Positions 4,844 through 37,411 of a stretch of DNA of 64,000 bases are shown here, piece by piece. The position numbers were made by a program, and so were the translations under genes. Numbering within the stretch: the first letter of the stretch is position 1; each line of letters starts with the position of its first letter. This DNA is from Kiritimatiellia bacterium (GTDB lineage Bacteria; Verrucomicrobiota; Kiritimatiellia; JAAZAB01). Under the pieces are notes generated by a model. The model was not told the DNA's origin, made no database searches, and saw nothing but the letters and a program-made list of their open reading frames with translations. The stretch spans positions 10,066-74,065 of the forward strand of contig JAQUQV010000003.1 of assembly GCA_028715905.1 (NCBI GenBank). The letters are read 5' to 3'.

Positions 4844-4901
4844 CGAATATTGCACGAATTTCGTGCAATGTTCGCTTTCGCTCAGGCGGGCATTGTCCGC
4901 C
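4844..4901 (+). repeat. intergenic repeat family C, copy 1: 13 bp-arm hairpin GAATATTGCACGAATTTCGTGCAATGTTC plus a second hairpin GCGGGCATTGTCCGC
   Basis: About 85% identical to the reverse complement of 25593-25650. Ends 22 nt before the gspF ATG. Confidence 0.5.
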
Positions 4902-11327: not shown

Positions 11328-11899
11328 AAATAACATCAAGGGAAATGCTGCTCGGCTGGTTGGCCGGTTTCGTGATGCTCACGGCCGTCTCGCTCTGGAT
11401 CTGCGGGCCGAAGGTGAAAATCTGGAGGGAATTGAACGGCCGTTCCGGAACGGTCGCGCGCCGGATTGAGGTGGCGGAACATCTTGTGGCGCAGAAGGCG
11501 GAGTGGAACAAGCGCTTGCGGGATGTGGCGCAGAAGCTGACCAAATACCCGCCGGATCAGGATGTTACCGCCGATTATCTGAAAATCCTTGAAAATATTG
11601 TCAAGGAAAACAACGTCACTCTTTCACAGCGCGTGCCTCAGAAGGAAAAAAGACACGACATCCTTTACAGTTTGACGATTAATTGCACCTGGGAGGCGGA
11701 ACTGGGCGATCTGGTGCGTTTTCTGTACGCGCTTGGACAGCAGAAAACCACCATGGATGTTGACGATCTGAACATATCGCTCGTGGGCGGCGGCAAGAAC
11801 AGATTGAAGGGTAATTTTGCCTTTGTCGGCCTTTACACCAGAACGGGCGCGCCATCCGCGCAGCAGAAAAAGGAAGAGATTCCGCGGAAAAACAATTAG
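11324..11899 (+). CDS. gspM: GspM/PilO-like assembly protein
   Basis: GTG start with GAAGGAG Shine-Dalgarno, overlapping the gspL stop. Single N-terminal TM, coiled coil, then PilO-like fold (about 190 aa). Confidence 0.62.
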   Translation: MKITSREMLLGWLAGFVMLTAVSLWICGPKVKIWRELNGRSGTVARRIEVAEHLVAQKAEWNKRLRDVAQKLTKYPPDQDVTADYLKILENIVKENNVTLSQRVPQKEKRHDILYSLTINCTWEAELGDLVRFLYALGQQKTTMDVDDLNISLVGGGKNRLKGNFAFVGLYTRTGAPSAQQKKEEIPRKNN

Positions 11900-11909
11900 A
11901 CTGTTCCAG

Positions 11910-11944
11910 TTAAACATGATACACTTTTGCGTAGAAGTTTAAAA
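11910..11944 (+). repeat. repeat family A, partial copy (first 35 nt only): TTAAACATGATACACTTTTGCGTAGAAGTTTAAAA
   Basis: Identical to the 5' part of the gene-facing orientation of the family A copies at 15215-15309, 22368-22460 and 34571-34670. Ends 14 nt before the gspD ATG. Confidence 0.55.
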
Positions 11945-11958
11945 GAGTAAAACAAGAG

Positions 11959-14574
11959 ATGGGCGGAATGATTTGTAACCCTGAAATTTGGCGCGCAATC
12001 AATTGCCTTCTTAAGCTTTTAAAGCGGGCTGAAGACCGCAATCCAAAGGGCCGGGCCGCCCAAACCGCGTGGCCGCGGCGGAAAAACCTGTTCCGTCCCG
12101 GCCGAAGCCTGCCTGCGGCCGCCCGGCTGTTTGCCGTTTTGATGTTGATTTTGGCCGTTCTGCCATTGATTTGCCGCGCTCAAATTGTTGCCGAGGAGGA
12201 GGAGGAGGAGGAGGAGGTGGCGACGGCGGTGCCGGGAAAAGCCGGCGTGGCAGTCCCCGCCCCGGAGTTGCCGCCGATTATGCCCCGTACGCCGGACACG
12301 GTTCAGACCGACCTGCCGGTCGGCTTGAAATATGAAAACATTGATTCGGACGAGGTCATCAAGCAATACAGCGACTGGACCGGCCTGGCCCTGATGAAAT
12401 CCCCCGATGTTCCCACCGTAAAGATTACGCTCAAATGTCCGAAACGCCTGCCGAAACGCGAGGCCCTGCTGGCCATTGAAGGAGTGCTGGCCATGAACGG
12501 CATTGCCCTGGTGCCGATGGGCGACAAGTTTTTAAAAGTCGTCAAGATTGAGACGGCCCGCCAGCATGGCATGAAAACAGGCACCGGGCCGCTTGAAAAG
12601 GATATTGCCACGGCCGACCATCTCGTGAGCCGGATTGTGGAATTAAAGCACCTTGACATTGCCGAGGCGCAGAACGCCATTCAGTCTTTCCTCCATCCCT
12701 ACGCCAAAGTCATTCCGATGGAAAGGGTCAATTGCATCCTGATCACCGAGACCGCCAACAATCTCAAGCGCATCTTGGAAATATTTGAAATCATAGACCA
12801 GCCGATTGAAAGCCGCGAGGACATGCGCATTTTCCAGATAAAATACGCGAAAGCTTCGGAGATCCAGAGCAAAATAGAGTCAATTATCGCCGATGTTCAG
12901 ACGAAGGACACCAAAAGCGCCCTCATCACCCGGCAATTGGCCACCGCGCGCATGCCCTTCCAGCCGGTGCGAGCCGGCCCCCCGGCGCAGCCCGCCCAGG
13001 CCGCCATGGATTCCGAAACTACCGGAACCGCCTTTGACCGCAGTTTGATCCAGAGCAAGGTGAAAATGGTGGCGGACGACCGCATAAATTCGCTCATTGT
13101 CATCACCCGCGTGGAACAGTTCCGCTTCATAGAAAATATCATTAAAGCCCTGGACCAGAAGATTGAACCGGATGTTACCATCAAGGTTCTTACGCTTGAG
13201 TATGCGGATGCCAAGGAGGTCGTTTCGCTCCTGAACACGTTTATTACGGCCGCATCCTCCAGCTCAAAGTCGGCGCAGACCCCGCCCTTGCTGCCGGTTC
13301 CGGAGCGGCCCGCAGAACAGCCGAAACAGGAAGGGCGGAAAGAAGGCGAAACAACCGATGCCGGTGAAAATCAGATCAGCGGAAAACTTTCTTCCGATGT
13401 GAAAATTATTGCCGACAGCCGGATCAACGCCCTGCTCATCATGGCCTGCAAGGCGGACCTGGAAATCATTGAGGAGGTCGTCGCCAAGGTTGACATCATG
13501 CTTTCCCAGGTGCTGATTGAAGTGGTGATTATTGAGGTGTCCCTGACCGACAAGTTTAAAATGGGAATTGACTGGCTGCAGCGTTCAATGATCGCCTACA
13601 ATGAAAAGCAGGGCGGCGGCCGGCGCGCATTCCTCGGTTTTTCCGGCGCCGGACGCGTCGGCGCGGACGGCGCCATCAAAGACGGCGCGGGCATCAATAC
13701 AATCGCCGACAACACCACCAGCGCCGGCTCCGGGCTGACGTATTATTTCACTTTCTTTGACTATAATATTGACGCGGTCCTCAACATGCTGGCCACGACC
13801 GATGACGCCAAAATCCTTGCCACGCCGGTCATTTTAACCACGGACAATACCGAGGCTAAAATCCTGGTCGGCGAGAAAAGGCCGGTGGTGACCGGCACCA
13901 GCATTTCCAGCGCCACCCAGCAATCCACCTACCAGTACGTTGATATCGGTATTGACCTGGAGGTTACCCCCCATATCAACAAGAACGGTTTTGTGATTAT
14001 GGACGTGAAGCAGAAAGTTGACAACACGCCCGGCAACGTAACGATTGACGGCAATCCGGTCCCGATCATCACCACCCGCGATTTTACCGCTTCCATTTCG
14101 GTCAATGACGGCCGGACGGTTATCATCGGCGGAATCGTGAATGAGCAAAACACCAAAGCCAGGACAAAAATCCCCTTCCTGGGCGATATCCCCCTGCTGG
14201 GGCTGCTTTTCCGCAGCGACAGTGACGAATTGAAGCGCACCGAGCTTATGGTGATGCTTACGCCGTACGTGCTTGACACGCCCGCCGAGGCTTACGCGGA
14301 GACGGCCCGGCGGCACGCCAACCTGAAAGGCATTTCCAACCTCTGGGTCCAGGGCTGGTCGCCCAGCGATTTGGCTGCCCCGTCGCAAGAGAAAGTCCGG
14401 GGGCAGGAGCAGGAGGAGAGAAAAAGGACAGAACCCGGCGAGCCGGTGGAAGTTTATCCGCTCGGAGAAAACGCCGTGAATGCCATTCTCCCCGGGAAGT
14501 CTGCGCCGCATCCGGAAAATCAACCGGCGGCGGATTATCAAATGCCCGCTTCCAACTCGCCCGCCGTAAAATAA
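11959..14574 (+). CDS. gspD: type II secretion secretin GspD
   Basis: Several N-domains, secretin domain (..GIVNEQNTKARTKIPFLGDIPLLGLLFRSDSDELKRTELMVMLTPYVL), signal peptide. The start could be a few codons downstream. Confidence 0.9.
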   Translation: MGGMICNPEIWRAINCLLKLLKRAEDRNPKGRAAQTAWPRRKNLFRPGRSLPAAARLFAVLMLILAVLPLICRAQIVAEEEEEEEEVATAVPGKAGVAVPAPELPPIMPRTPDTVQTDLPVGLKYENIDSDEVIKQYSDWTGLALMKSPDVPTVKITLKCPKRLPKREALLAIEGVLAMNGIALVPMGDKFLKVVKIETARQHGMKTGTGPLEKDIATADHLVSRIVELKHLDIAEAQNAIQSFLHPYAKVIPMERVNCILITETANNLKRILEIFEIIDQPIESREDMRIFQIKYAKASEIQSKIESIIADVQTKDTKSALITRQLATARMPFQPVRAGPPAQPAQAAMDSETTGTAFDRSLIQSKVKMVADDRINSLIVITRVEQFRFIENIIKALDQKIEPDVTIKVLTLEYADAKEVVSLLNTFITAASSSSKSAQTPPLLPVPERPAEQPKQEGRKEGETTDAGENQISGKLSSDVKIIADSRINALLIMACKADLEIIEEVVAKVDIMLSQVLIEVVIIEVSLTDKFKMGIDWLQRSMIAYNEKQGGGRRAFLGFSGAGRVGADGAIKDGAGINTIADNTTSAGSGLTYYFTFFDYNIDAVLNMLATTDDAKILATPVILTTDNTEAKILVGEKRPVVTGTSISSATQQSTYQYVDIGIDLEVTPHINKNGFVIMDVKQKVDNTPGNVTIDGNPVPIITTRDFTASISVNDGRTVIIGGIVNEQNTKARTKIPFLGDIPLLGLLFRSDSDELKRTELMVMLTPYVLDTPAEAYAETARRHANLKGISNLWVQGWSPSDLAAPSQEKVRGQEQEERKRTEPGEPVEVYPLGENAVNAILPGKSAPHPENQPAADYQMPASNSPAVK
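12194..12217 (+). repeat. (GAG)8 trinucleotide repeat encoding a poly-Glu tract just after the secretin signal peptide
   Basis: gaggaggaggaggaggaggaggag in frame gives EEEEEEEE. Confidence 0.7.
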
Positions 14575-14651: not shown

Positions 14652-15206
14652 CTAATTTGAGCTGGTGAGTTGTTTCAGTTCGTCGCGCAGCTTGGCGGCG
14701 TCCTCGTAACGCTCCTCGGCCACGGCCTTGGCGAGCCGCTGTTTCAGTTTTTCAACCGGAGATATTTTCTGCTGGAGTTCCCCGTCTTTCTGCAGGACGG
14801 AATCTTCGTTTTCCTTGAGGATTACCCCGGCGTTTTCCATGACCGCTTCGGCCGCAAAAATCGGCGCCGAAAAACGCAGGGCCAGCGCGATGGCGTCGCT
14901 CGGGCGCGAATCAAGCTCTATTTCCATGCCGTTCCACTCCAGGAACAGTTTTGCGTAAAAAGTGTTGTCCCGCAGGTCGCAGATTTCAATCCGCTTCATG
15001 CGGCATTCAAGATTATCCATCAGGTCTTTCAGGAGATCGTGGGTTAAAGGCCGCGGCGGCCGGATGTTTTCCAGCACGAAGGCGATGGCCTGGGCCTCGG
15101 CCGCGCCGATGAAAATCGGCAGGGTGCGGTTGTTGCCTTCTGCCTTCAGGAAAACAACAAATCCCATATTGGAAAGCGAAATCTGGCTGACTTTTACCGC
15201 AATCAT
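14652..15206 (-). CDS. bifunctional nuclease (BFN/DUF151) with C-terminal UVR domain
   Basis: DUF151-like core, C-terminal UvrB/UvrC-type motif EERYEDAAKLRDELKQL. Confidence 0.8.
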   Translation of the reverse strand: MIAVKVSQISLSNMGFVVFLKAEGNNRTLPIFIGAAEAQAIAFVLENIRPPRPLTHDLLKDLMDNLECRMKRIEICDLRDNTFYAKLFLEWNGMEIELDSRPSDAIALALRFSAPIFAAEAVMENAGVILKENEDSVLQKDGELQQKISPVEKLKQRLAKAVAEERYEDAAKLRDELKQLTSSN

Positions 15207-15214
15207 GTTTCCCG

Positions 15215-15309
15215 CCTAAGGCGGCAGTGCCGCCATCCAAAACTTTCCCGGCTGGCGATCCGCCGGTTTTATTTAAACTTCTACGCAAAAGTGTATCATG
15301 TTTAAATGG
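15215..15309 (-). repeat. repeat family A, copy 1 (about 95 nt), facing the BFN gene start
   Basis: About 90% identical to 22368-22460 and to the reverse complement of 34571-34670. Contains hairpin GGCGGCAGTGCCGCC. Ends 9 nt before the BFN ATG. Confidence 0.6.
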
Positions 15310-15320
15310 AACGGTCTAAA

Positions 15321-15704
15321 TTATTCGGTCAGCTGTTTTTCATACTCGGAAGCTGCCAGCAGTTTTTCAGCGTCCTGCGGGTCGTCGGGCTTGATTTTGA
15401 CCAGCCAGCCCTCGCCGTAGGGGTCGGCGTTGATCGCATCCGGCTTGTCGGCCAGGTTTTCATTGACTTCCACAATGGTGCCGGCGACCGGCATGTAGAC
15501 GTCGGCCGCCGCCTTTATTGATTCCACCACGGCCATTTCCTCGCCGGCTGAAATATGCCGGTTGGCCGCCGGCAGTTCCACATAGGTGATGTCGGAAAGC
15601 TGGTGCTGGGCGAAATCGGTTATGCCGGTTTTGAGCAGGTCGCCCTCAACCTGCGTCCATTCGTGCGTTTTGGTGTATTTGCGGTCAGACGGTGTAACGG
15701 CCAT
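15321..15704 (-). CDS. gcvH: glycine cleavage system H protein
   Basis: 127 aa; KYTKTHEW..lipoyl-lysine motif region ESIKAAADVYMPV. Confidence 0.9.
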   Translation of the reverse strand: MAVTPSDRKYTKTHEWTQVEGDLLKTGITDFAQHQLSDITYVELPAANRHISAGEEMAVVESIKAAADVYMPVAGTIVEVNENLADKPDAINADPYGEGWLVKIKPDDPQDAEKLLAASEYEKQLTE

Positions 15705-22283: not shown

Positions 22284-22367
22284 AATTAAATGAAAACGCG
22301 CAATTATTTGATTTAAGCGTACCTGAAGAACGGCCGTCAGGCAAGTAGAAATCAATGCGATTCCCGT

Positions 22368-22460
22368 CTAAGGGGCAGTGCCGCCATCCAAAACTTTCCC
22401 GGCTGGCGATCCGCCGGTCTTATTTAAACTTCTACGCAAAAGTGTATCATGTTTAAATGG
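22368..22460 (-). repeat. repeat family A, copy 2, facing the DUF362 gene
   Basis: Near-identical to 15215-15309. Lies about 85 nt upstream of the DUF362 ATG. Confidence 0.6.
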
Positions 22461-22496
22461 CGCTAAAATCGGGCGGCGGGGGGCGGGGGAGACCGG

Positions 22497-23645
22497 CTAC
22501 GGCAAAAAGGCGCCTTTTTTGATTTTTACAGGCAAATATTTTTCCAGCACGTAATTGAGGCCGTGTTTGGCAAAGGCCTGCTGCTCAATGCGCACGCCCA
22601 TGGAAAGCATCTGCTCCAGCGCGGCCTGCCATTCCTTGTGGTGTTTAATGAAGGGATCGTTTTTCAGCGCGTCCCTGGCGCGTTTAATGTCGTTTTCCTC
22701 CAGCGGGTGGGTGGCGTCCTTGAGGTCAAAGTCAATGATGTCCTGCGGGGTGACGCCGAGATAGTGGACCTGCGGCACGCAGAAGAACTGGTTGATGTGC
22801 GCGGCCTGGCCCGAGCCGACCTTGAGCGTCCGGTAGATGTTGCAGTAGCCGTACGGGTCGCCGTCGGTGAATGCCAGCACCGGCAGGCGGCGGTCGTCGC
22901 AGAGGCGGCGGATGAACCGGCGGCAGGCGCGGGTCGGAACTCCGCTCATTGAAATCAGGATGCAGTTCGCCTTTTCATAGTAGCGGTGGTGCACCAGACG
23001 TTGAAAGAGCGAGGCAGTCTCAATTACCAGCACGAATTTCGCCTTTGTCTCAAAACGCAGGTGCTCAACCTGGGAGGGAATGCTCCATGCGCCGGTGCCG
23101 AGCCGTTCGCAGTTGATCCTGATTTCGTCCCGCGTGCCGGGATCAACATCAATGACCGTGAGCGGACCGGTAACTTCGCCGCCGCGCTCCTCGGGAATAT
23201 AACCGAGTTGTTCGCGGTTGACGGCGAGCATGGCTTCCATGTCGTCCAACAGCGAGTCGCTTTCCGGCTGTTCGTTGAACCGGCATTCGCCCCAGCTTTT
23301 GCTGTTGTAATAAATTTCGCGCTTCCCGGCGATGTCGTTCTTGTCCAGCAGGTCGTTCTTGGTGGTGGCCAGCAGGCGCATGGACTGGGCGAAAGTTTTG
23401 ACCGTGTTGTAGGAGAGCGTGCGCGTCGCCGTTTTGTTGAGGATTTCAAAATGGCCCTTGCGCGGGTCGTACTTGACGTTGCTCAGGGAGCGGATCGGGA
23501 AACGCATTTTTGGGCGGGTGTTTTTTTTGACAATATCCGCGTAAATATCGCCGGCCGTCCGCGTGATTTTAGCGGCGGCGTCTTTTTTGGAGACGATATT
23601 GTATTTTGCTGTGTTTAATTTTACGGTGTCTGACGTCTTTGCCAT
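22497..23645 (-). CDS. top6A: DNA topoisomerase VI subunit A (Spo11/Top6A family)
   Basis: CAP domain with catalytic-Tyr motif GKREIYY, Toprim Glu (VLVIETASLF) and DxD (FTDGDPYGY). GAGGAAAAAC ATG Shine-Dalgarno. Confidence 0.85.
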   Translation of the reverse strand: MAKTSDTVKLNTAKYNIVSKKDAAAKITRTAGDIYADIVKKNTRPKMRFPIRSLSNVKYDPRKGHFEILNKTATRTLSYNTVKTFAQSMRLLATTKNDLLDKNDIAGKREIYYNSKSWGECRFNEQPESDSLLDDMEAMLAVNREQLGYIPEERGGEVTGPLTVIDVDPGTRDEIRINCERLGTGAWSIPSQVEHLRFETKAKFVLVIETASLFQRLVHHRYYEKANCILISMSGVPTRACRRFIRRLCDDRRLPVLAFTDGDPYGYCNIYRTLKVGSGQAAHINQFFCVPQVHYLGVTPQDIIDFDLKDATHPLEENDIKRARDALKNDPFIKHHKEWQAALEQMLSMGVRIEQQAFAKHGLNYVLEKYLPVKIKKGAFLP

Positions 23646-23759
23646 GTTTTTCCTCAAGTGCTGAATCTTTCTGATTTTCGGATATTTCTCGCCTGCTCTC
23701 CCGGCCTCCCGGAGAATCGGGAAGCGCAAGGCGTTCGCTTTTCTGTGAGGGTCATTCTG

Positions 23760-25505
23760 CTATTGTTCCAGATGCGTCCTTTCCAGCATCTTTTGCAGTT
23801 TGTGCAACACGGCTTTTTCCTGCCGGTCGTCAAATTCCAGGATTTGTTTCAGACCCAGCGCCAGATGGGGCAGGTAGAGCTCAATGTAATTCCGCTTGCG
23901 CTCCAGTTCCGCCTGGCGCCGCCGCCGGCTCAAATAGACCGCCAGCCGCCGGCCGCATTCCTGAAGGGCAAAAACTATTTCGCGGATGATTTCCGGGTAA
24001 TGCGCGATGGCCTCCTTGCTTTCGCTGGTGAAGGGCACCCAAACGCTGGCGATATGGACCATGATCACCAGCGGTCCCAGCGGCAGAGAGCCGGAAGGCT
24101 GGGCGAGGTGATAGCTTTTCCAATTGATGGCGGAGACCGCCTTGGTGATGGCGCAGGCGCCGCCCATGTAAAGCATCGGAACCTTGTTGGCGAAACGCAG
24201 GACGCGGGCCGGCTCTTCCGCGCCGAGTCCCTGGGCGGCGTCCGGCTTGGCGTAGGCGATTCCCGCCTCAATCTGGAAGGGATTGCCGCGGTAGACCTCC
24301 GGACTGCGCGTGACGGACGTGTAGAAATCGGCCTTGATTTCCTTCTCCAGCCCGGCGATTATTTCCTTTTCGCCGATCGGCGAGAGGCAGTCGGTCGGCG
24401 GCCGCATCAACTTGGTTTCGCCGATGGCCTTGAAGAGCGCCTCGCTTTCGCGGTGCGCGATCTGGGCCGGCCGCTCCTTAGGGGCTAATCCGGCCCGCTC
24501 GCAGATTTCCTTCGCCACGCGGTCGCTGATCCGCGAGAAATCGTGCTGCAGGGCGGCCTTGAGGGATTTATGGGGGGTGTCTTTCAGCATCTGGATAAGC
24601 ATGCCCAGCTCAACGCCGTGGGGATGCGGCTTGATTTCAAAGGGCTGGACCGGGGTTTTGTGCGTGGCCCGCGCAAAGGTGGTCCACGGCGCCGTCCCTT
24701 TTTCCCCGGGAACGTCCTTTTCCTTTCCCGGCTCAGCCGCGCTGATGCGGTAATGCAGTTGAAGGTGGGGGTTGACGATGGCGCATTGTTTCAGGTATTC
24801 ATCCACGGAAAGTTTGCCGCGCGCGTAGGCCGCCTCCATTTCAATGGCCACGCAGGTGCCGTGCCTGGCGGTTGCCGCCCCGCCCGTTTCGCCGCCGGCG
24901 AATTCCGGCGTCCATTCCAGTTCCTGGTCCTTGAGGATGACCGGCTTGTTCTGGCGCGTGTCAATCTGCACTTCAAGGTGGTGGCCGGTTTTTGAATTTT
25001 TTGTCCGGGACTTTATGACGGTCGGCTTGCCGGTGGTCAACTGCCCGTACATTCCGGCGGCGCTGATGCCGATGCCCTGCTGGCCGCGCGACATGCGCAG
25101 GCGGTGGAACTTTGAGCCGTAAAGCAGCTTGGCGAATATTTTCGGGATCTGGTTGCGCAGGATGCCCGGTCCATTGTCGGTAACCGATACCACGAAACGT
25201 TTGGCGGCGGTCTGCCGGATTTCAACGCCGATTTCCGGCAGGATGCCGGCTTCGTCGCAGGCGTCCAGGGAATTGTCAACCGCTTCCTTGACGGCGGTCA
25301 GGAGCGCCTTGCGCGGGTTGTCAAAACCCAGCAGGTGGCGGTTTTTGAGAAAAAATTCGGAGACCGATATTTCCCGCTGGCTGGCGGCCATGCTTTCGGC
25401 GGTGGCGCCGGAGTCCGCCGGCGGCCGGGCACGGCCGGATTGGCGGCCGGCATTGTTTTTTACGTTTTTGCCGGGCGCGGTTTGCCTGAAAGTTTTTTTC
25501 CTCAT
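23760..25505 (-). CDS. top6B: DNA topoisomerase VI subunit B (GHKL ATPase plus transducer)
   Basis: Bergerat-fold motifs (EAVDNSLDA.., DNGPGI, GxxGxG-like QGIGISAAGMYG). N-terminus ..EISVSEFF.. is typical of Top6B. The start may instead be the Met at 25391. Confidence 0.85.
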   Translation of the reverse strand: MRKKTFRQTAPGKNVKNNAGRQSGRARPPADSGATAESMAASQREISVSEFFLKNRHLLGFDNPRKALLTAVKEAVDNSLDACDEAGILPEIGVEIRQTAAKRFVVSVTDNGPGILRNQIPKIFAKLLYGSKFHRLRMSRGQQGIGISAAGMYGQLTTGKPTVIKSRTKNSKTGHHLEVQIDTRQNKPVILKDQELEWTPEFAGGETGGAATARHGTCVAIEMEAAYARGKLSVDEYLKQCAIVNPHLQLHYRISAAEPGKEKDVPGEKGTAPWTTFARATHKTPVQPFEIKPHPHGVELGMLIQMLKDTPHKSLKAALQHDFSRISDRVAKEICERAGLAPKERPAQIAHRESEALFKAIGETKLMRPPTDCLSPIGEKEIIAGLEKEIKADFYTSVTRSPEVYRGNPFQIEAGIAYAKPDAAQGLGAEEPARVLRFANKVPMLYMGGACAITKAVSAINWKSYHLAQPSGSLPLGPLVIMVHIASVWVPFTSESKEAIAHYPEIIREIVFALQECGRRLAVYLSRRRRQAELERKRNYIELYLPHLALGLKQILEFDDRQEKAVLHKLQKMLERTHLEQ

Positions 25506-25592
25506 AAGCGGAAGGAAACGATAAGGAAAATACGCAAAAAAACAATTAAAAATTGACAATAAAACGCGAATATATAACAATAATTTTTTACC

Positions 25593-25650
25593 AGCGGGCA
25601 ATGCCCGCTTGAGTGAAAGCGAATATTGCACGATTCTCTTGCAATATTCA
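25593..25650 (-). repeat. repeat family C, copy 2 (reverse orientation on the plus strand; faces top6B)
   Basis: GCGGGCAATGCCCGC..linker..GAATATTGCACGATTCTCTTGCAATATTC; the linker is the reverse complement of the copy 1 linker. Confidence 0.5.
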
Positions 25651-25659
25651 GGCATTAAC

Positions 25660-25881
25660 ATGTTTATTTCCGGATTAACTTCGGTAACATTCCGCAAACT
25701 TTCCTGCCGGAAAGTGGCCGCCCTGGTGAAAAAAGCCGGTTTGGCCGCCATTGAGTGGGGCGGGGAAGTGCACGTGCCGCACGGCGATATTGCCCGCGGG
25801 AAGTGTTTTTTATTGCCTTTCGGGTCTTGTTTGGCGATATTACTTCCCTGTGTTGCCTCAAGGCCGCCCGGAAAGGGATAG
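25660..25881 (+). pseudogene. probable N-terminal remnant (about 48 aa) of a xylose-isomerase-like TIM-barrel (sugar phosphate isomerase/epimerase) gene
   Basis: MFISGLTSVTFRKLSCRKVAALVKKAGLAAIEWGGEVHVP resembles the N-terminus of that family (compare the intact paralog at 29071-29868). Similarity stops after about 50 aa, and the ORF ends 3 nt before lpxA. Confidence 0.3.
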
Positions 25882-27556: not shown

Positions 27557-27786
27557 GCTCGTTGCCATCCCGTGTAAAATTCGCGGCTTAACGGCAACAA
27601 ATAATGGTTTTGTTCAATTATGTCAAGGCATAGGAATTTTCCGCCGGAGGCGGATCCGCCTACGGCGGAAAATCTTGCCGCAAAAAAGCACAAAATCGGG
27701 GTGGGCGCCGAACTTCTGTTCGGCGATTGCGCGCCGTGGCAGGCAGGAGCCGAACCCCTGTTCGGCGATGTATATTTTATTATCCG

Positions 27787-27870
27787 GAATCGCCGCATGG
27801 GGATGCGGCTACCGCGCCGCTCAAAAGTTGCTGTCTTTGGCGGGCCCAATCCGGGGCGGATATTCAGGGG
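27787..27870. repeat. repeat family B, copy 1 (GAATCGCCGCATGGGGATGCGG...CTTTGGCGG...ATTCAGGGG), immediately 3' of the Gfo/Idh/MocA gene
   Basis: Shares a 24 nt near-identical head, CTCAAA, GTTGC, CTTTGGCGG and an ATTCAGGGG tail with 37339-37411. Confidence 0.5.
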
Positions 27871-33405: not shown

Positions 33406-34575
33406 ATGACATTGACGCGCATGTTCTTGTTGATCGCGCCGGCGGCAGGCTTGATGCTGGTTGGATGTCATTTGATTGACGCTGCCGGCCGGAAAACCGG
33501 AGGCGAAAATCAAAAAACTGACGGCGCGCCGCCGAATTTCCTGCGGAACGGGAATTTTGAAAAAACAGACCGGCTCACCGGAAAGCCGGCGGACTGGTCT
33601 TGTCACGAGAAAATGGCTGGGAGCAATGTTATTGAGTGGGGGGTTACCCCGGAAAATGGCCGCGCGGGGCGGAATTGCCTGCGTTTAAGCTCGGAGAGGG
33701 AGGGATATCACGGCGGTATTTTTCAAAAAGTGGCGCTGGAACCCGATATGACTTATAAATTCAGCGCGTGGATCAAGGCGGACGTCGCGACCAATGACGG
33801 CAAGGTGGTATGCTTGTATTATGATGGCTATAATGAAGAGGATGGCAAAAAACAATGGTGGGGCGGGTCGTTAAAAACTCTGCGGCAGAGCGCGGACTGG
33901 CAATACGTGGAAAAGGTGATTGTTGCGACATCGCGCACGCCGGAAACGGTGAATTTTTATCCGTGCTTGTTTTACGGCGCGACGCGCGTATGGCTGGATG
34001 ATGTGCGGCTGGTTGAGGAGGGGTATGCCGGCCAGCCGGGGAGGAGCGTATTTCAGATCAAGGCGCCCGCGGCGGACTGGGAGATTTTTTGCGACCAGGG
34101 GGAAAGGTATGGGGTTAAAACGCGGGCGGCGCGGGTGAAACGGGAACAGGTGGAAGGCCGGGATTGCCTGCGGCTTGATTATCGCTTTGAGACGGCCGGA
34201 CATGATTGCGTGATGATACGCGCGGCGGCGAATGCCGGCGAAAAGGCCGGCCTGGCGGCCGTAACAATGTACGGGGACGGATCAGGGCATGAATTGTTTC
34301 TTATCCTGGAGGATAACGGCGGAGAGAATCATTATTTGCCGATTACCCCGGTTTATTGGAAAGGCTGGCGGACGGTTTATCGTGCCATGGATAAACTGTA
34401 TCGGCCGCCCAGGAAGCATGAAATACATGCGACGTGTTGGGGCGGGGACAGCAACCAGGTTGTTGATTTGCCGCTCAAGCGGATTACGGTCGGAATGAAC
34501 GACTGGCCCGATGAATACCGCGGGCGTGGGCGGGTCTGGCTGGAAAAGGCGGTTTTTTTAGACCGTTCCTTTTAA
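33406..34575 (+). CDS. lipoprotein with CBM4/9-like domain (NGNFE..) and the same C-terminal domain as the preceding protein
   Basis: Lipobox LMLVGC, NGNFEKTD CBM_4_9-like start. The C-terminus ..IHATCWGGDSNQVVDLPLKRITVG.. is paralogous to ..IYATHWGGDGNQTIDFPIKQIEVG.. Confidence 0.65.
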   Translation: MTLTRMFLLIAPAAGLMLVGCHLIDAAGRKTGGENQKTDGAPPNFLRNGNFEKTDRLTGKPADWSCHEKMAGSNVIEWGVTPENGRAGRNCLRLSSEREGYHGGIFQKVALEPDMTYKFSAWIKADVATNDGKVVCLYYDGYNEEDGKKQWWGGSLKTLRQSADWQYVEKVIVATSRTPETVNFYPCLFYGATRVWLDDVRLVEEGYAGQPGRSVFQIKAPAADWEIFCDQGERYGVKTRAARVKREQVEGRDCLRLDYRFETAGHDCVMIRAAANAGEKAGLAAVTMYGDGSGHELFLILEDNGGENHYLPITPVYWKGWRTVYRAMDKLYRPPRKHEIHATCWGGDSNQVVDLPLKRITVGMNDWPDEYRGRGRVWLEKAVFLDRSF

Positions 34576-34670
34576 ACATGATACACCTTTGCGTAGAATT
34601 TTAAATAAGGCCGGCGAATCGCCACCCGGGAAAGTTTTTAATGGCGGCGCTGCCGCCTTGGATTGGAATG
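34571..34670 (+). repeat. repeat family A, copy 3, facing the downstream plus-strand gene
   Basis: TTTAAACATGATACACCTTTGCGTAGAATTTTAAATAAGGCCGGCGAATCGCC...GGCGGCGCTGCCGCC. Ends about 20 nt before AGGAGG ... ATG at 34691. Confidence 0.6.
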
Positions 34671-34690: not shown

Positions 34691-35137
34691 ATGATGAGAC
34701 GAATATTGAGCGGATTAGTCGCTGTCCTGGCGATCTCGGGATCATATGCGGATGACCTGGTTTTGGATGGCGGCGTAATTTATACCAATGACGCCGGGAC
34801 GTCCAATTACGTTTGCTTTGTGGTCGGGAGCAACACGGCCGATAACGGATATATCCTGACCAACGGCGCGGTCTTGAATACGACCACGGCGGTTGTGGGT
34901 TATGCCGGATCTGCCACCAACAATTTTGTGCTGGTGGACGGGGCAACATGGCATAATGCCACCAACGTGTACATGGGCTACAGCGGCAGCGCCGGATTTA
35001 ACCGCATCATCATCACCAACGGCGGTCTCTGGTCGCTTGGCAAAGACGCCATTGTTTTTGTCGGCAAAGCATCAAATCCCACCCGTATAAGCGAGGGTAA
35101 ATACGTGTATTTTCTTGCCTCCCCGGTAAAATTTTGA
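34691..35137 (+). CDS. secreted autotransporter-associated beta-strand-repeat (PATR-like) protein, short and possibly truncated
   Basis: Signal peptide MMRRILSGLVAVLAISGSYA followed by G/N/T-rich beta-helix repeats; only 148 aa, whereas this class is usually very large. Confidence 0.5.
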   Translation: MMRRILSGLVAVLAISGSYADDLVLDGGVIYTNDAGTSNYVCFVVGSNTADNGYILTNGAVLNTTTAVVGYAGSATNNFVLVDGATWHNATNVYMGYSGSAGFNRIIITNGGLWSLGKDAIVFVGKASNPTRISEGKYVYFLASPVKF

Positions 35138-35149
35138 TAGTAAAAAAAC

Positions 35150-36160
35150 ATGAATGCATCCGGCAACGAAATAAACCTCAAGGGGCGCAGTCTTCTGAAA
35201 CTTGTGGATTTGAGCGATGAGGAGTTGCTTTACCTCATTGACCTGGCCGGCCGCCTCAAGGAAATGAAAAAGCGCCGCGCCCACGGCAATTCCCTTTTCC
35301 GCCGGAACATTGCCTTGATTTTTGAAAAACCTTCAACCCGCACCCGTTCGGCCTGCACGGTTGCGGCGGTGGACGAGGGCGCGAGCGTGGAATATATGGA
35401 CATGAAAGACCTGCATCTGGGTAAAAAGGAATCCATCAAGGATTCGGCGCGCGTGCTCGGCCGGATGTTTGACGGCATAATGTTTCGCGGTTTCAGCCAG
35501 GCGACCATGGAGACGCTGGCCAAATACGCCGGCATTCCGGTCTGGAACGGCTTGACCGACGAAAGCCATCCCACCCAGACCCTGGCCGATCTCATGACGA
35601 TCCGTGAATGTTTTAAAGGTTTGCGCGGCTTGAAGGTGGTTTATGTCGGCGATGGCCGCAACAACGTGTGTCTTTCGCTGATGGTGGGCTGTGCCAAGAC
35701 CGGCATCAATTTCGTTGACTGCACTCCGCGGGAACTTATGCCCGACGCGGCGGTTCTCGCGCAGGTTTCCGCGCTGGCGCGCGCGCACGGCTGCACGCTT
35801 GAAATCAGCCACGATCTCAACGCGGCCGTCCGGAATGCCCAGGTGATTTACACCGATGTCTGGATTTCCATGGGCGAGGAAAAGAAATTTGAGGAGCGCC
35901 ACCGTCTCCTGAAGCCCTATCAGGTCAGCATGGACCTCATGCGTAAAACCGGCAAATTGGAAAACGGCGGGGTGATTTTCCTGCATTGCCTGCCGGCTTT
36001 CCACAACCATGAGACGGAAGCGACCCGCGCGACAGGCGCCCTGGAAGTTACCGACGAGGTCTTTGAAGCGCCATTTTCAAGGGTTTTTGACCAGGCCGAA
36101 AACCGCCTGCATACTATCAAGGCCATCATGGTTGCGACATTGGCCGGAGGGGGGATATAA
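35150..36160 (+). CDS. argF: ornithine carbamoyltransferase
   Basis: STRTR carbamoyl-phosphate motif, HCLPA ornithine motif, 336 aa. Confidence 0.88.
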   Translation: MNASGNEINLKGRSLLKLVDLSDEELLYLIDLAGRLKEMKKRRAHGNSLFRRNIALIFEKPSTRTRSACTVAAVDEGASVEYMDMKDLHLGKKESIKDSARVLGRMFDGIMFRGFSQATMETLAKYAGIPVWNGLTDESHPTQTLADLMTIRECFKGLRGLKVVYVGDGRNNVCLSLMVGCAKTGINFVDCTPRELMPDAAVLAQVSALARAHGCTLEISHDLNAAVRNAQVIYTDVWISMGEEKKFEERHRLLKPYQVSMDLMRKTGKLENGGVIFLHCLPAFHNHETEATRATGALEVTDEVFEAPFSRVFDQAENRLHTIKAIMVATLAGGGI

Positions 36161-36163
36161 GCC

Positions 36164-37246
36164 GTGAATGCCCCGCAAACTGTTCTGAGGGAGTTGGCGT
36201 GGGGCGAGTTTCAGAAGCTTGATTTGAAGCAAAAGGCGGACTGTTTCAACCTTGACGGACAGCCTTATCACGTTCTGGTCGCCCAGCAGTTTGACCGGCG
36301 GCTTCTTGAGGAACTGGGCGACCTGGCCACCAATATTCGTTATATCGCCAAAACCAAGTCCGGCATGGATTTTCTGCACGCGTTGTTATCCCATAAAACC
36401 GCCATGCTTTATTTCACCCAGCCGAGCACCCGCACTTTTCTTTCGTTTCATTCCGCCTGCCAGATTCTGGGCATGCGCACGGTTGAAGTGCGCGATACGG
36501 CCACTTCCAGCGAAATGAAGGGCGAAACCCAGGAAGATTCGGTGCGGACTTTCAGTTCTTTTTCCGATGCCATCATCATGCGCAGCGCCATTCCCGGTCT
36601 GGCCGAGAAAATGGCCTGGGTTCTTTCCAACACCGAGCGCCCGGTACCGATTCTCAACGCCGGGTCCGGAAAGGACCAGCACCCCACTCAGGCCCTGCTT
36701 GATATCTATACCTTGCGTCGCAGTTTTGAAAAAAGAGGCGGCATAGACCGCAAGAAAATAGTTTTTGTGGGCGATCTGGCGCGCGGCCGGACGGTGCGCT
36801 CGCTCGCCTATCTCCTCAGCAATTACGCCGGCGTCCGGCAGTATTTTATCGCTCCGCCGCAGCTCCAGATTGGCCGGGACATCCTGGAAATCCTGGGCCG
36901 GGCCGGGGTTGATTACGAGCTGGATTCCGATTTTGAAAAGTATATTCCCGAGGCCGACGCGGTCTACATGACGCGCATCCAGGACGAGTGGGATGAGAAA
37001 AAAGGCCAGAGCGAGAAAATCAAAGCCGCAAAATTTCATTTCACGGCCGGCCATCTGAAAAAACTGTCGGCGCAGGCGGTTATTATGCATCCCCTCCCGC
37101 GCCGCGGGGAAATCGCCGTTGAAGTGGACAGCGATCCGCGCGCCGTCTACTGGCGTCAGGTGCGCAACGGCATGTGGATCAGGGTCGCCCTCCTTGCCAG
37201 TATTTTCGGGTGCGGCCCGGCGATCAGCGGTTTTCACGGCGGATAG
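36164..37246 (+). CDS. aspartate carbamoyltransferase catalytic-chain-like transcarbamylase
   Basis: STRTF and HPLPR motifs characteristic of ATCase; about 40 aa N-terminal extension. Exact substrate is uncertain. Confidence 0.72.
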   Translation: MNAPQTVLRELAWGEFQKLDLKQKADCFNLDGQPYHVLVAQQFDRRLLEELGDLATNIRYIAKTKSGMDFLHALLSHKTAMLYFTQPSTRTFLSFHSACQILGMRTVEVRDTATSSEMKGETQEDSVRTFSSFSDAIIMRSAIPGLAEKMAWVLSNTERPVPILNAGSGKDQHPTQALLDIYTLRRSFEKRGGIDRKKIVFVGDLARGRTVRSLAYLLSNYAGVRQYFIAPPQLQIGRDILEILGRAGVDYELDSDFEKYIPEADAVYMTRIQDEWDEKKGQSEKIKAAKFHFTAGHLKKLSAQAVIMHPLPRRGEIAVEVDSDPRAVYWRQVRNGMWIRVALLASIFGCGPAISGFHGG

Positions 37247-37338
37247 GCGTTGAACCGGCGCGCGCCCTATTTCGGTGCGGGAAAAATGCGGGTCTTTTCT
37301 GGGGGCGCAAATTCCTCACGCTTCACTTCTCCGCCCCT

Positions 37339-37411
37339 GAATCGCCGCATGGGGCTGCGGCTCCTACGTCTCTCAAATACAGTTGCAGCCTTTGGCGGCT
37401 TAATTCAGGGG
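37339..37411. repeat. repeat family B, copy 2, overlapping the last codons of the thioredoxin-like gene
   Basis: GAATCGCCGCATGGGGCTGCGG..CTCAAA..GTTGC..CTTTGGCGG..ATTCAGGGG, flanked by the inverted pair CCCCTGAAT/ATTCAGGGG. Confidence 0.5.

Follow-up and report, generated by a model that had tools for sequence, protein, structure and literature searches.

The window, that is, the whole 64-kb stretch of DNA that was analysed, comes from an uncultured Kiritimatiellae bacterium and contains a non-coding repeat of ~112 nt in four places, where three full copies and one 5' fragment were found (Table 1). Pfam matches of the neighbouring genes placed the fragment, c1, between a gspM-like gene and the secretin gene gspD. 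The full copies lie between gcvH and the gene of a BFN nuclease (c2), between the genes of topoisomerase VI-A and a DUF362 protein, the latter accompanied by a polyferredoxin gene (c3), and between the gene of a CBM_4_9 protein and that of a 148-aa PATR-like protein with a signal peptide, after which OTCase follows (c4). All four copies are located between co-directional genes and have the same orientation as these genes, with TTTAAACATG... reading toward the next start codon. This orientation, seen in four of four copies, agrees with the original prediction, as does the functional unrelatedness of the downstream genes (gspD, BFN nuclease, DUF362 and PATR-like).

We made some additional observations on these genes. 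The 148-aa protein (34691-35137, + strand) contains PATR-like repeats and showed no Pfam match. Its gene is followed, after 12 nt, by a pair of adjacent carbamoyltransferase genes (35150-36160 and 36164-37246), and the protein may be the truncated remnant of a larger secreted protein. Both subunits of topoisomerase VI (A and B, of the archaeal/plant type) are encoded at 22497-25751 on the minus strand of this bacterial contig. The annotated gspD open reading frame (11959-12270, + strand) begins with MGGMICNPEIW... and carries no signal peptide. Because the tblastn matches of gspD in relatives start at query residues 58-111, its true start is probably downstream of 11959.

Architecture and conservation of the repeat

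The extents of the copies were defined by repeat finding and by nhmmer with an HMM built on the three full copies (c2, c3 and c4). The 35-nt core TTTAAACATGATACACTTTTGCGTAGAAGTTTAAA gave four matches with up to 3 mismatches in the window, compared with none in 100 shuffles, which confirmed that the copies are real. The four places proposed originally were right, while the proposed length of 95 nt was too short: c2 spans 112 nt, the element length is ~112-117 nt, and the c1 fragment is 48 nt rather than 35 nt. In particular, 11-14 additional 5' bases (TTAGACCGTTCC) are common to c1, c2 and c4, and the similarity at the 3' end extends through TTAG-nnGGGAA.

Table 1. Positions of the repeat copies and of their component features in the window.
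Feature	Positions	Strand	Description
Copy c1	11896-11943	+	48-nt 5' module alone; 96% identical to c2 over 48 nt
Copy c2	15209-15320	-	Full length, 112 nt; nhmmer score 129.7 bits
Copy c3	22361-22468	-	High identity from CCATTTAAAC, 22460
Copy c4	34557-34668	+	Full length
AT-rich 35-nt module, c2	15272-15306	-	7-nt inverted repeat TTTAAAC/GTTTAAA enclosing the stem TACAC-TTTT-GCGTA
AT-rich module, c3	22423-22457		Equivalent of the c2 module
AT-rich module, c4	34571-34605		Equivalent of the c2 module
AT-rich module, c1	11909-11943		Equivalent of the c2 module
GC hairpin 2, c2	15248-15266	-	CCGGCGGATCGCCAGCCGG
GC hairpin 2, c3	~22399-22417		Equivalent of c2 hairpin 2
GC hairpin 2, c4	~34611-34629		Equivalent of c2 hairpin 2, degraded
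GC hairpin 3, c2	15220-15234	-	GGCGGCACTGCCGCC, then TTAG-GCGGGAA
GC hairpin 3, c3	~22372-22385		Equivalent of c2 hairpin 3
GC hairpin 3, c4	~34643-34657		Equivalent of c2 hairpin 3
Terminator-like site, c2	15250-15268	+	Consensus scan
Terminator-like site, c3	22401-22419	+	Consensus scan
Terminator-like site, c4	34624-34612	-	Consensus scan; degraded

Pairwise comparison of the copies revealed 99% identity between c2 and c3 over 87 nt (22374-22460 in c3) with unrelated flanks, and 88-90% identity of c4 to c2 and c3. The identity of about 90% given earlier thus describes c4 against the other two and falls short of the value for c2 and c3. The 5' end of c3 reads TTTTAGCG where the c2 type has TTAGACCGTT, and hairpin 3 of c3 carries a 1-nt deletion.

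From left to right, the element consists of the left end TTAGACCGTTCC, a palindromic AT-rich module of 35 nt, a pair of GC hairpins and the right end TTAG-nnGGGAA. When read toward the downstream gene, c2 has the layout TTAGACCGTTCC-ATTTAAACATGATACACTTTTGCGTAGAAGTTTAAAT-AAAA-CCGGCGGATCGCCAGCCGG-GAAAGTTTTGGAT-GGCGGCACTGCCGCC-TTAGGCGGGAA. The AT-rich module is the best-conserved part of the element, above the hairpins; GC hairpins 2 and 3 differ from each other in sequence and are arranged in tandem, not inverted. The tetranucleotide TTAG at both ends is invariant across the copies, and it may represent a target preference or simply be part of the element sequence.

The forward strand of the element contains stop codons in all three frames. 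Translations of the frames without early stops, taken from both strands and compared with a protein database, matched no predicted protein. An 8-codon open reading frame (MIHFCVEV) was considered as a leader peptide and rejected, as it has no ribosome-binding site and both c4 substitutions in it are non-synonymous.

Two further repeats were found in the window. A second small family occupies two intergenic sites (27784-27825 and 37336-37377) that are 83% identical over 42 nt and contain the hairpin GCCGCATGGGGATGCGGC. Additionally, a palindromic, operator-like 30-mer, CGAATATTGCACGAATTTCGTGCAATGTTC, occurs at 4844-4873 and 25620-25649 with 87% identity; one of its sites lies between gspE and gspF, and the other is close to the 5' end of the gene for topoisomerase VI-B.

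Junctions of the repeat with the neighbouring genes

The left end of the element (TTAGAC...) lies on the natural stop codon of the upstream gene, or within a few bases of it, in three of the four copies. In c1, the TAG within TTAGAC (11897-11899) is itself the stop codon of the gspM-like gene, and the protein ends in the same alignment column as three orthologues. In c2, the TAA of gcvH precedes the element by 1 nt. In c4, the open reading frame of the CBM_4_9 protein enters the element and stops at the TAA of the element (34573-34575), so that its last 5 codons and the stop are element-derived; the protein is nevertheless full length, as its homologues align up to residue ~393 of 396 and continue for a further 3-14 residues. 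The fourth copy, c3, starts 29-36 nt past the stop codon of topoisomerase VI-A (22497). Every left junction reads T-TAG or TTTAG: TTAG stands immediately 5' of c1, c2 and c4, and c3 has TTTTAG upstream of it. Gene remnants had been suspected beside two of the copies; the complete CBM protein and the orthologue-like end of the gspM-like protein lend no support to this suggestion for these two genes, and the short PATR-like gene after c4 may be a remnant.

On the downstream side, c1 ends 15 nt before the annotated gspD start (11959), a distance that would be longer if gspD starts later, as discussed above. The distance from c2 to the BFN ATG (15206) is 2 nt, or 8 nt from the shorter end at 15215 given originally, and c2 occupies nearly the whole 114-nt gap between the gcvH stop codon (15321-15323) and the BFN start. 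The DUF362 ATG (22282) is 78 nt from c3 and is the real start; it opens the TAT signal MKNSITRREFI. The ATG after c4 (34691) is 22 nt away and is preceded by an AGGAGG ribosome-binding site. With the enlarged extents, distances of 15, 2, 78 and 22 nt replace the earlier range of 9-90 nt. The view that the copies lie directly upstream of a gene holds insofar as each faces a start codon; however, they lie equally directly after the previous stop codon, and the gene after c3 is far enough away to have room for its own promoter.

The co-orientation of all four copies corresponds to a one-sided p of 0.0625 (n=4). In a crude gene map of the window, 36 of the 51 intergenic regions are of the tandem type, so a tandem location of the copies is to be expected. 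The polarity is real and, with only four copies, statistically weak, as is the adjacency to stop codons.

Promoter-like motifs and RNA structure on the two strands

The 5' part of the element contains the pair TTTAAA-17-TAGAAG, which was originally taken for a sigma-70-like shared promoter. We found that in c1, c2 and c3 this forward pair has no T at the last -10 position and fails the minimal sigma-70 rule, which it passes in c4 only (TTTAAA-17-TAGAAT). In contrast, all four copies pass this rule on the reverse strand, with TTTAAA-16-TATCAT. The sequences do not support a shared forward promoter. On both strands the matches score 9 of 12, the lowest value accepted, and matches of this score occur 15-19 times per 20 kb in the window versus 8-11 times in shuffles. 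The real-looking promoters of the clade have the form TTGGCA/TTGACN-16/17-TATnnT; examples from the window are TTGACT-17-TAAATT before gspE and TTGGCA-16-TACAAT before clpB. The BFN orthologues of four relatives (L006, L007, L025 and L031) share a conserved CTTGGCAAA-N14-TATWWT promoter. At c2 this native promoter is gone and the element takes up the gap. With the ancestral BFN promoter lost, a contribution of the element at c2 is plausible, and read-through from gcvH would be equally sufficient. Promoter activity of the element in either direction is possible.

RNA folding gave z-scores of -1.9, -1.2 and -0.5 for the forward strands of the three full copies, which are not unusually stable. 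The reverse strands folded better (-3.5, -2.3 and -0.9) because their inner stem forms G-U pairs in place of the A-C of the forward strand. No compensatory base changes were observed on either strand among the three sequences, which are too few for a proper covariation test. The c4 substitutions disrupt pairing in the outer stem of the AT-rich hairpin and abolish two of the pairs in hairpin 2. Over the whole window, Rfam gave no matches at the gathering thresholds, and in E-value mode the best score for c2 was 18.9 bits against a 55-bit threshold, to an animal microRNA model, which is noise. The structured 5' leader of the original prediction consequently found no support in forward folding, in compensatory changes or among the Rfam covariance models.

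These results bear directly on the idea that the element is a mobile promoter with a structured 5' leader, in which the AT-rich module would fire downstream and the GC hairpins would form a stabilising 5' UTR. Its strengths are that four of four copies face a start codon, that c2 fills the gap from which the BFN promoter of the relatives has disappeared, and that the c4 pair passes the sigma-70 rule; additionally, the element fits the definition of putative mobile promoters (PMC3488235) and Correia elements offer a precedent (PMC10969869). Nevertheless, the -10 hexamer of c1-c3 lacks the final T, the -35 hexamer TTTAAA is unlike the TTGnCA of the clade, the match on the reverse strand is equal or better in all copies, and the forward RNA folds unremarkably without covariation. 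The contexts do not demand a new promoter either: c1 is internal to the T2SS operon, c2 follows gcvH at a distance of 1 nt and read-through suffices there, and the gene after c3 is 78 nt off and has its own candidate promoter, TTGCCT-17-TACGCT, which was seen by eye and was not listed by the automated scan. We therefore consider a promoter-and-leader function unlikely.

A terminator-like hairpin, GGCTGGCGATCCGCCGG followed by the T-run TTTTATTT, was confined to the strand that opposes the flanking genes. The scan that located these sites used a lax consensus, which gave 46-50 sites per 20 kb compared with 31-33 in shuffles, and the U-run is degraded in c3 and c4. If the reverse strand were the functional one, this terminator would be followed by an outward promoter, TTTAAA-16-TATCAT, from which an antisense RNA would run into the 3' end of the upstream gene, as from the outward promoter of an IS end. 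The sigma-70 rule is passed by four of four copies with the hairpin and T-run just 5' of the promoter, and this strand folds better (z of -3.5 and -2.3), with G-U in the inner stem in place of the forward A-C mismatch. On the other hand, a score of 9 of 12 is the minimum and is frequent by chance, the T-run has decayed in c3 and c4, covariation is absent, and antisense RNAs against four unrelated genes have no evident conserved target or purpose. A functional reverse strand is accordingly very unlikely.

The hairpins on the transcribed strand could alternatively act in cis on the RNA, as in REP/BIME sequences, where post-stop hairpins would shield the upstream mRNA from 3' exonucleases or tune intercistronic translation or decay. 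In three of the four copies the left end is placed at, or a few nt away from, the stop codon of the upstream gene, which is in line with such a role, as are the two GC-rich hairpins on the transcribed strand and the co-directional gene pair found in every context. However, the hairpins have not been maintained, given the deletion in c3 and the pair-breaking, uncompensated substitutions in c4; c1 contains no hairpins at all; conservation peaks in the AT-rich module instead; the element does not form an inverted REP pair; and a RAYT gene was not found in the window. We regard this role as distinctly improbable.

The AT-rich module itself might be the shared operator of a single DNA-binding regulator, with TTTAAAC-N21-GTTTAAA defining a regulon. 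In favour of this, the perfect 7-nt inverted repeat is kept in c2 and c3 and nearly kept in c1 and c4. Operators, however, do not hold 99% identity over 87 nt including spacers and flanking hairpins, and c4 breaks both ends of the inverted repeat. Moreover, the genes concerned have no functional relation to each other, and in relatives these genes were not seen to carry the element. An operator thus has hardly any likelihood.

Several other site types were examined and rejected. A dif/Xer site consists of two 11-nt arms (XerC and XerD consensus) around a centre of ~6 nt. The AT-rich module suggests such a site by eye, but it was outside the top sites of the window in a weighted scan with the consensus arms and spacers of 5-8 nt; the dif-like sites that overlap the element, two of them at hairpin 2, had scores within the shuffled range. 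An integron attC core, a -1 frameshift site (UUUAAAC) and sigma-54 and ECF sigma motifs, all judged by eye, were discarded owing to misfits in spacing or frame.

Probable dispersal of the repeat and its preferred interpretation

Logan contigs, which are short-read De Bruijn assemblies from the same species, have breaks within the element. At the gcvH-side end, the contigs L002 and L003 of two samples stop 1 nt apart, at 15287 and 15286, respectively; at the BFN-side end, L004 and L005, again from two samples, both begin at 15243. L004 also ends inside c1. With k=31 and the window copies alone, contig ends would be predicted at 15280 and 15252, and the observed breaks are 6-9 nt earlier. Because the contigs end early and at positions that agree to within 1 nt between samples, this assembly behaviour implies at least one further c2-type copy elsewhere in the genome. 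The c2 locus is identical in a JGI contig (L001).

To assess the distribution of the element, we searched DNA of relatives and larger collections. nhmmer did not find the element in ~90 kb of DNA of relatives whose BFN is 72-84% identical. The exact 20-mer of the 5' core had 0 matches in 185,579 species-representative genomes, JGI metagenomes and viral contigs. The 21-mer of the 3' module had four metagenome matches, all by chance and with unrelated flanks, and 0 viral matches, and BLASTN in its distant mode did not match the element among plasmids and phages. A full-text literature search found no description of a small interspersed repeat in Kiritimatiellae. The element was not found in the DNA of the relatives that was examined, and an empty site of sufficient identity was not found among them either; at the c1 junction their DNA sequences have diverged too far for such a comparison. 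In consequence, insertion, target and boundaries are inferred rather than observed.

Upon comparison of gene order, the four relatives with enough flanking sequence (L007, L025, L030 and L031) had hflX, BFN and then gspD on the opposite strand, and two other relatives had different BFN neighbours. In the window (14652-15704), gcvH and an aldo-keto reductase gene are present instead of hflX, and c2 is located exactly at the synteny breakpoint. No transposase or other mobility gene was found within the 64-kb window, which fits a non-autonomous element. A recent dispersal of the element fits the evidence and would correspond to the small mobile cassette that the original prediction held as its fallback. 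Of the mobile promoter cassette, the mobile-like behaviour is in line with the 99% identity of c2 and c3 amid unrelated flanks and with the truncation of c1, and the forward promoter is the part that the sequence does not support. Possibly, the copies were homogenised by gene conversion and not by transposition.

We favour, with confidence a little better than even, the interpretation of the element as a lineage-specific, recently amplified, non-autonomous and non-coding interspersed repeat that is passively transcribed and whose polarity would come from its target, from selection or from both. We infer that the element is mobile, that it chooses its target, that selection acts on it and that transcription runs through it, and these steps would be linked as follows. 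The element would insert beside a non-palindromic, TA-rich target (T-TAG or TTTAG). In a genome of 57% GC, such targets would be tolerated mostly at stop codons on the coding strand, so that the orientation would be locked to the upstream gene with no need for a function. In addition or instead, there may be selection against the opposite orientation: in it, a GC hairpin with a U-run, which has the shape of an intrinsic terminator, would come to lie on the mRNA between co-transcribed genes and would be polar. Croucher et al. reasoned in this way on the places where SPRITE repeats are tolerated (PMC3049150). The element would then travel passively within polycistronic transcripts or 5' UTRs, and such carriage would be almost unavoidable at c2, since the element ends 2 nt before the BFN ATG. 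Promoter activity, if any, would be incidental, as it is in Correia elements, and not the reason for the existence of the element.

A more far-reaching scenario would invoke an orientation-specific transposase acting in trans, either of the HUH single-strand type or undescribed, that targets T-TAG or TTTAG at gene ends and deposits a cassette of bidirectional promoter and hairpins at stop codons, thereby rewiring the next gene. We regard this as a long shot. If true, it would represent a mobile regulatory cassette that targets stop codons, in a phylum that has been little studied. On present evidence, the element is an ordinary repeat family.

The preferred interpretation, that of a recently amplified and passively transcribed repeat, would mean that Kiritimatiellae genomes carry recently active non-coding repeats. 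Such repeats fragment metagenome assemblies, as seen from the contigs that end in the element, and can mark points of rearrangement, as does c2, where gcvH has taken the place of hflX beside BFN. If the polarity and the stop-codon adjacency hold genome-wide, the family would provide a natural test of target choice versus selection against transcriptional polarity, and it would be a candidate source of portable promoters.

Comparison with known repeat classes

MITEs are small (<~500 bp), non-coding elements with terminal inverted repeats (TIRs), a copy-specific target-site duplication and a parent insertion sequence. The element resembles them in its length of 112 nt, its non-coding nature and its four copies of 88-99% identity with unrelated flanks, but it has no TIRs. 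When the left end was aligned with the reverse-complemented right end, the local score was 10-14, compared with a mean of ~10-11 and a 95th percentile of 13-15 in shuffles. The test for a target-site duplication revealed TTAG at both ends, identical in all copies.

REP/BIME sequences are GC-rich imperfect palindromes of 20-40 nt that form inverted doublets of one unit and have an associated RAYT gene. IS200/IS605-type elements have no TIRs and cause no duplication, insert 3' of a fixed tetra- or pentanucleotide and have similar subterminal hairpins at both ends. The element shares with these two classes the lack of TIRs, the GC-rich hairpins, the intergenic site after a stop codon, the adjacent tetranucleotide (TTAG) and an orientation-specific behaviour. 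In contrast to REP/BIME, its three hairpins are mutually unlike, no inverted REP doublet is formed and the AT-rich module is dominant; moreover, both orientations of the element occur within 23 kb and track the direction of the genes, not that of replication. Domains of Y1_Tnp, RAYT and TnpA transposases were not found within the 64-kb window. Unlike those of IS200/IS605-type elements, the hairpins on the left and on the right have no sequence relation to each other. The absence of TIRs and the constant TTAG are compatible with an IS200/IS605-type origin, while hairpin similarity and the search for a transposase in the window give it no support.

Putative mobile promoters were defined by Matus-Garcia, Nijveen and van Passel (2012) as sequences of 50-100 nt with at least 80% identity that lie upstream of non-homologous genes in one genome (PMC3488235). 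The element falls within this operational definition, which sets a class by position only; its own forward promoter evidence is weak and consists of consensus scans.

The distribution of SPRITE was ascribed by Croucher et al. to selection against the disruption of transcription, as this repeat is found preferentially between convergent genes, where termination does no harm (PMC3049150). Both SPRITE and the element are small and species-restricted, have a terminator-like hairpin with a T-run and lie near the ends of coding sequences, and neither has yielded empty sites from which a target duplication could be read. The two have no sequence similarity, and the element differs in its location between co-directional genes, where its terminator-like side falls on the non-coding strand.

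Correia elements (CREE/NEMIS) of Neisseria are 100-155 nt long, intergenic, often just upstream of genes and co-transcribed with them, and they contain sigma-70-like hexamers and have TA-containing targets (PMC10969869). They differ from the element in their 26-nt TIRs, TA duplication and hundreds of copies, whereas TIRs were undetected in the element and its polarity is seemingly fixed. The likeness lies in the size class of ~100 nt, the intergenic location, the presumed co-transcription with neighbouring genes, the sigma-70-like hexamers and the presumed TA-containing target, which the element has in common with them.
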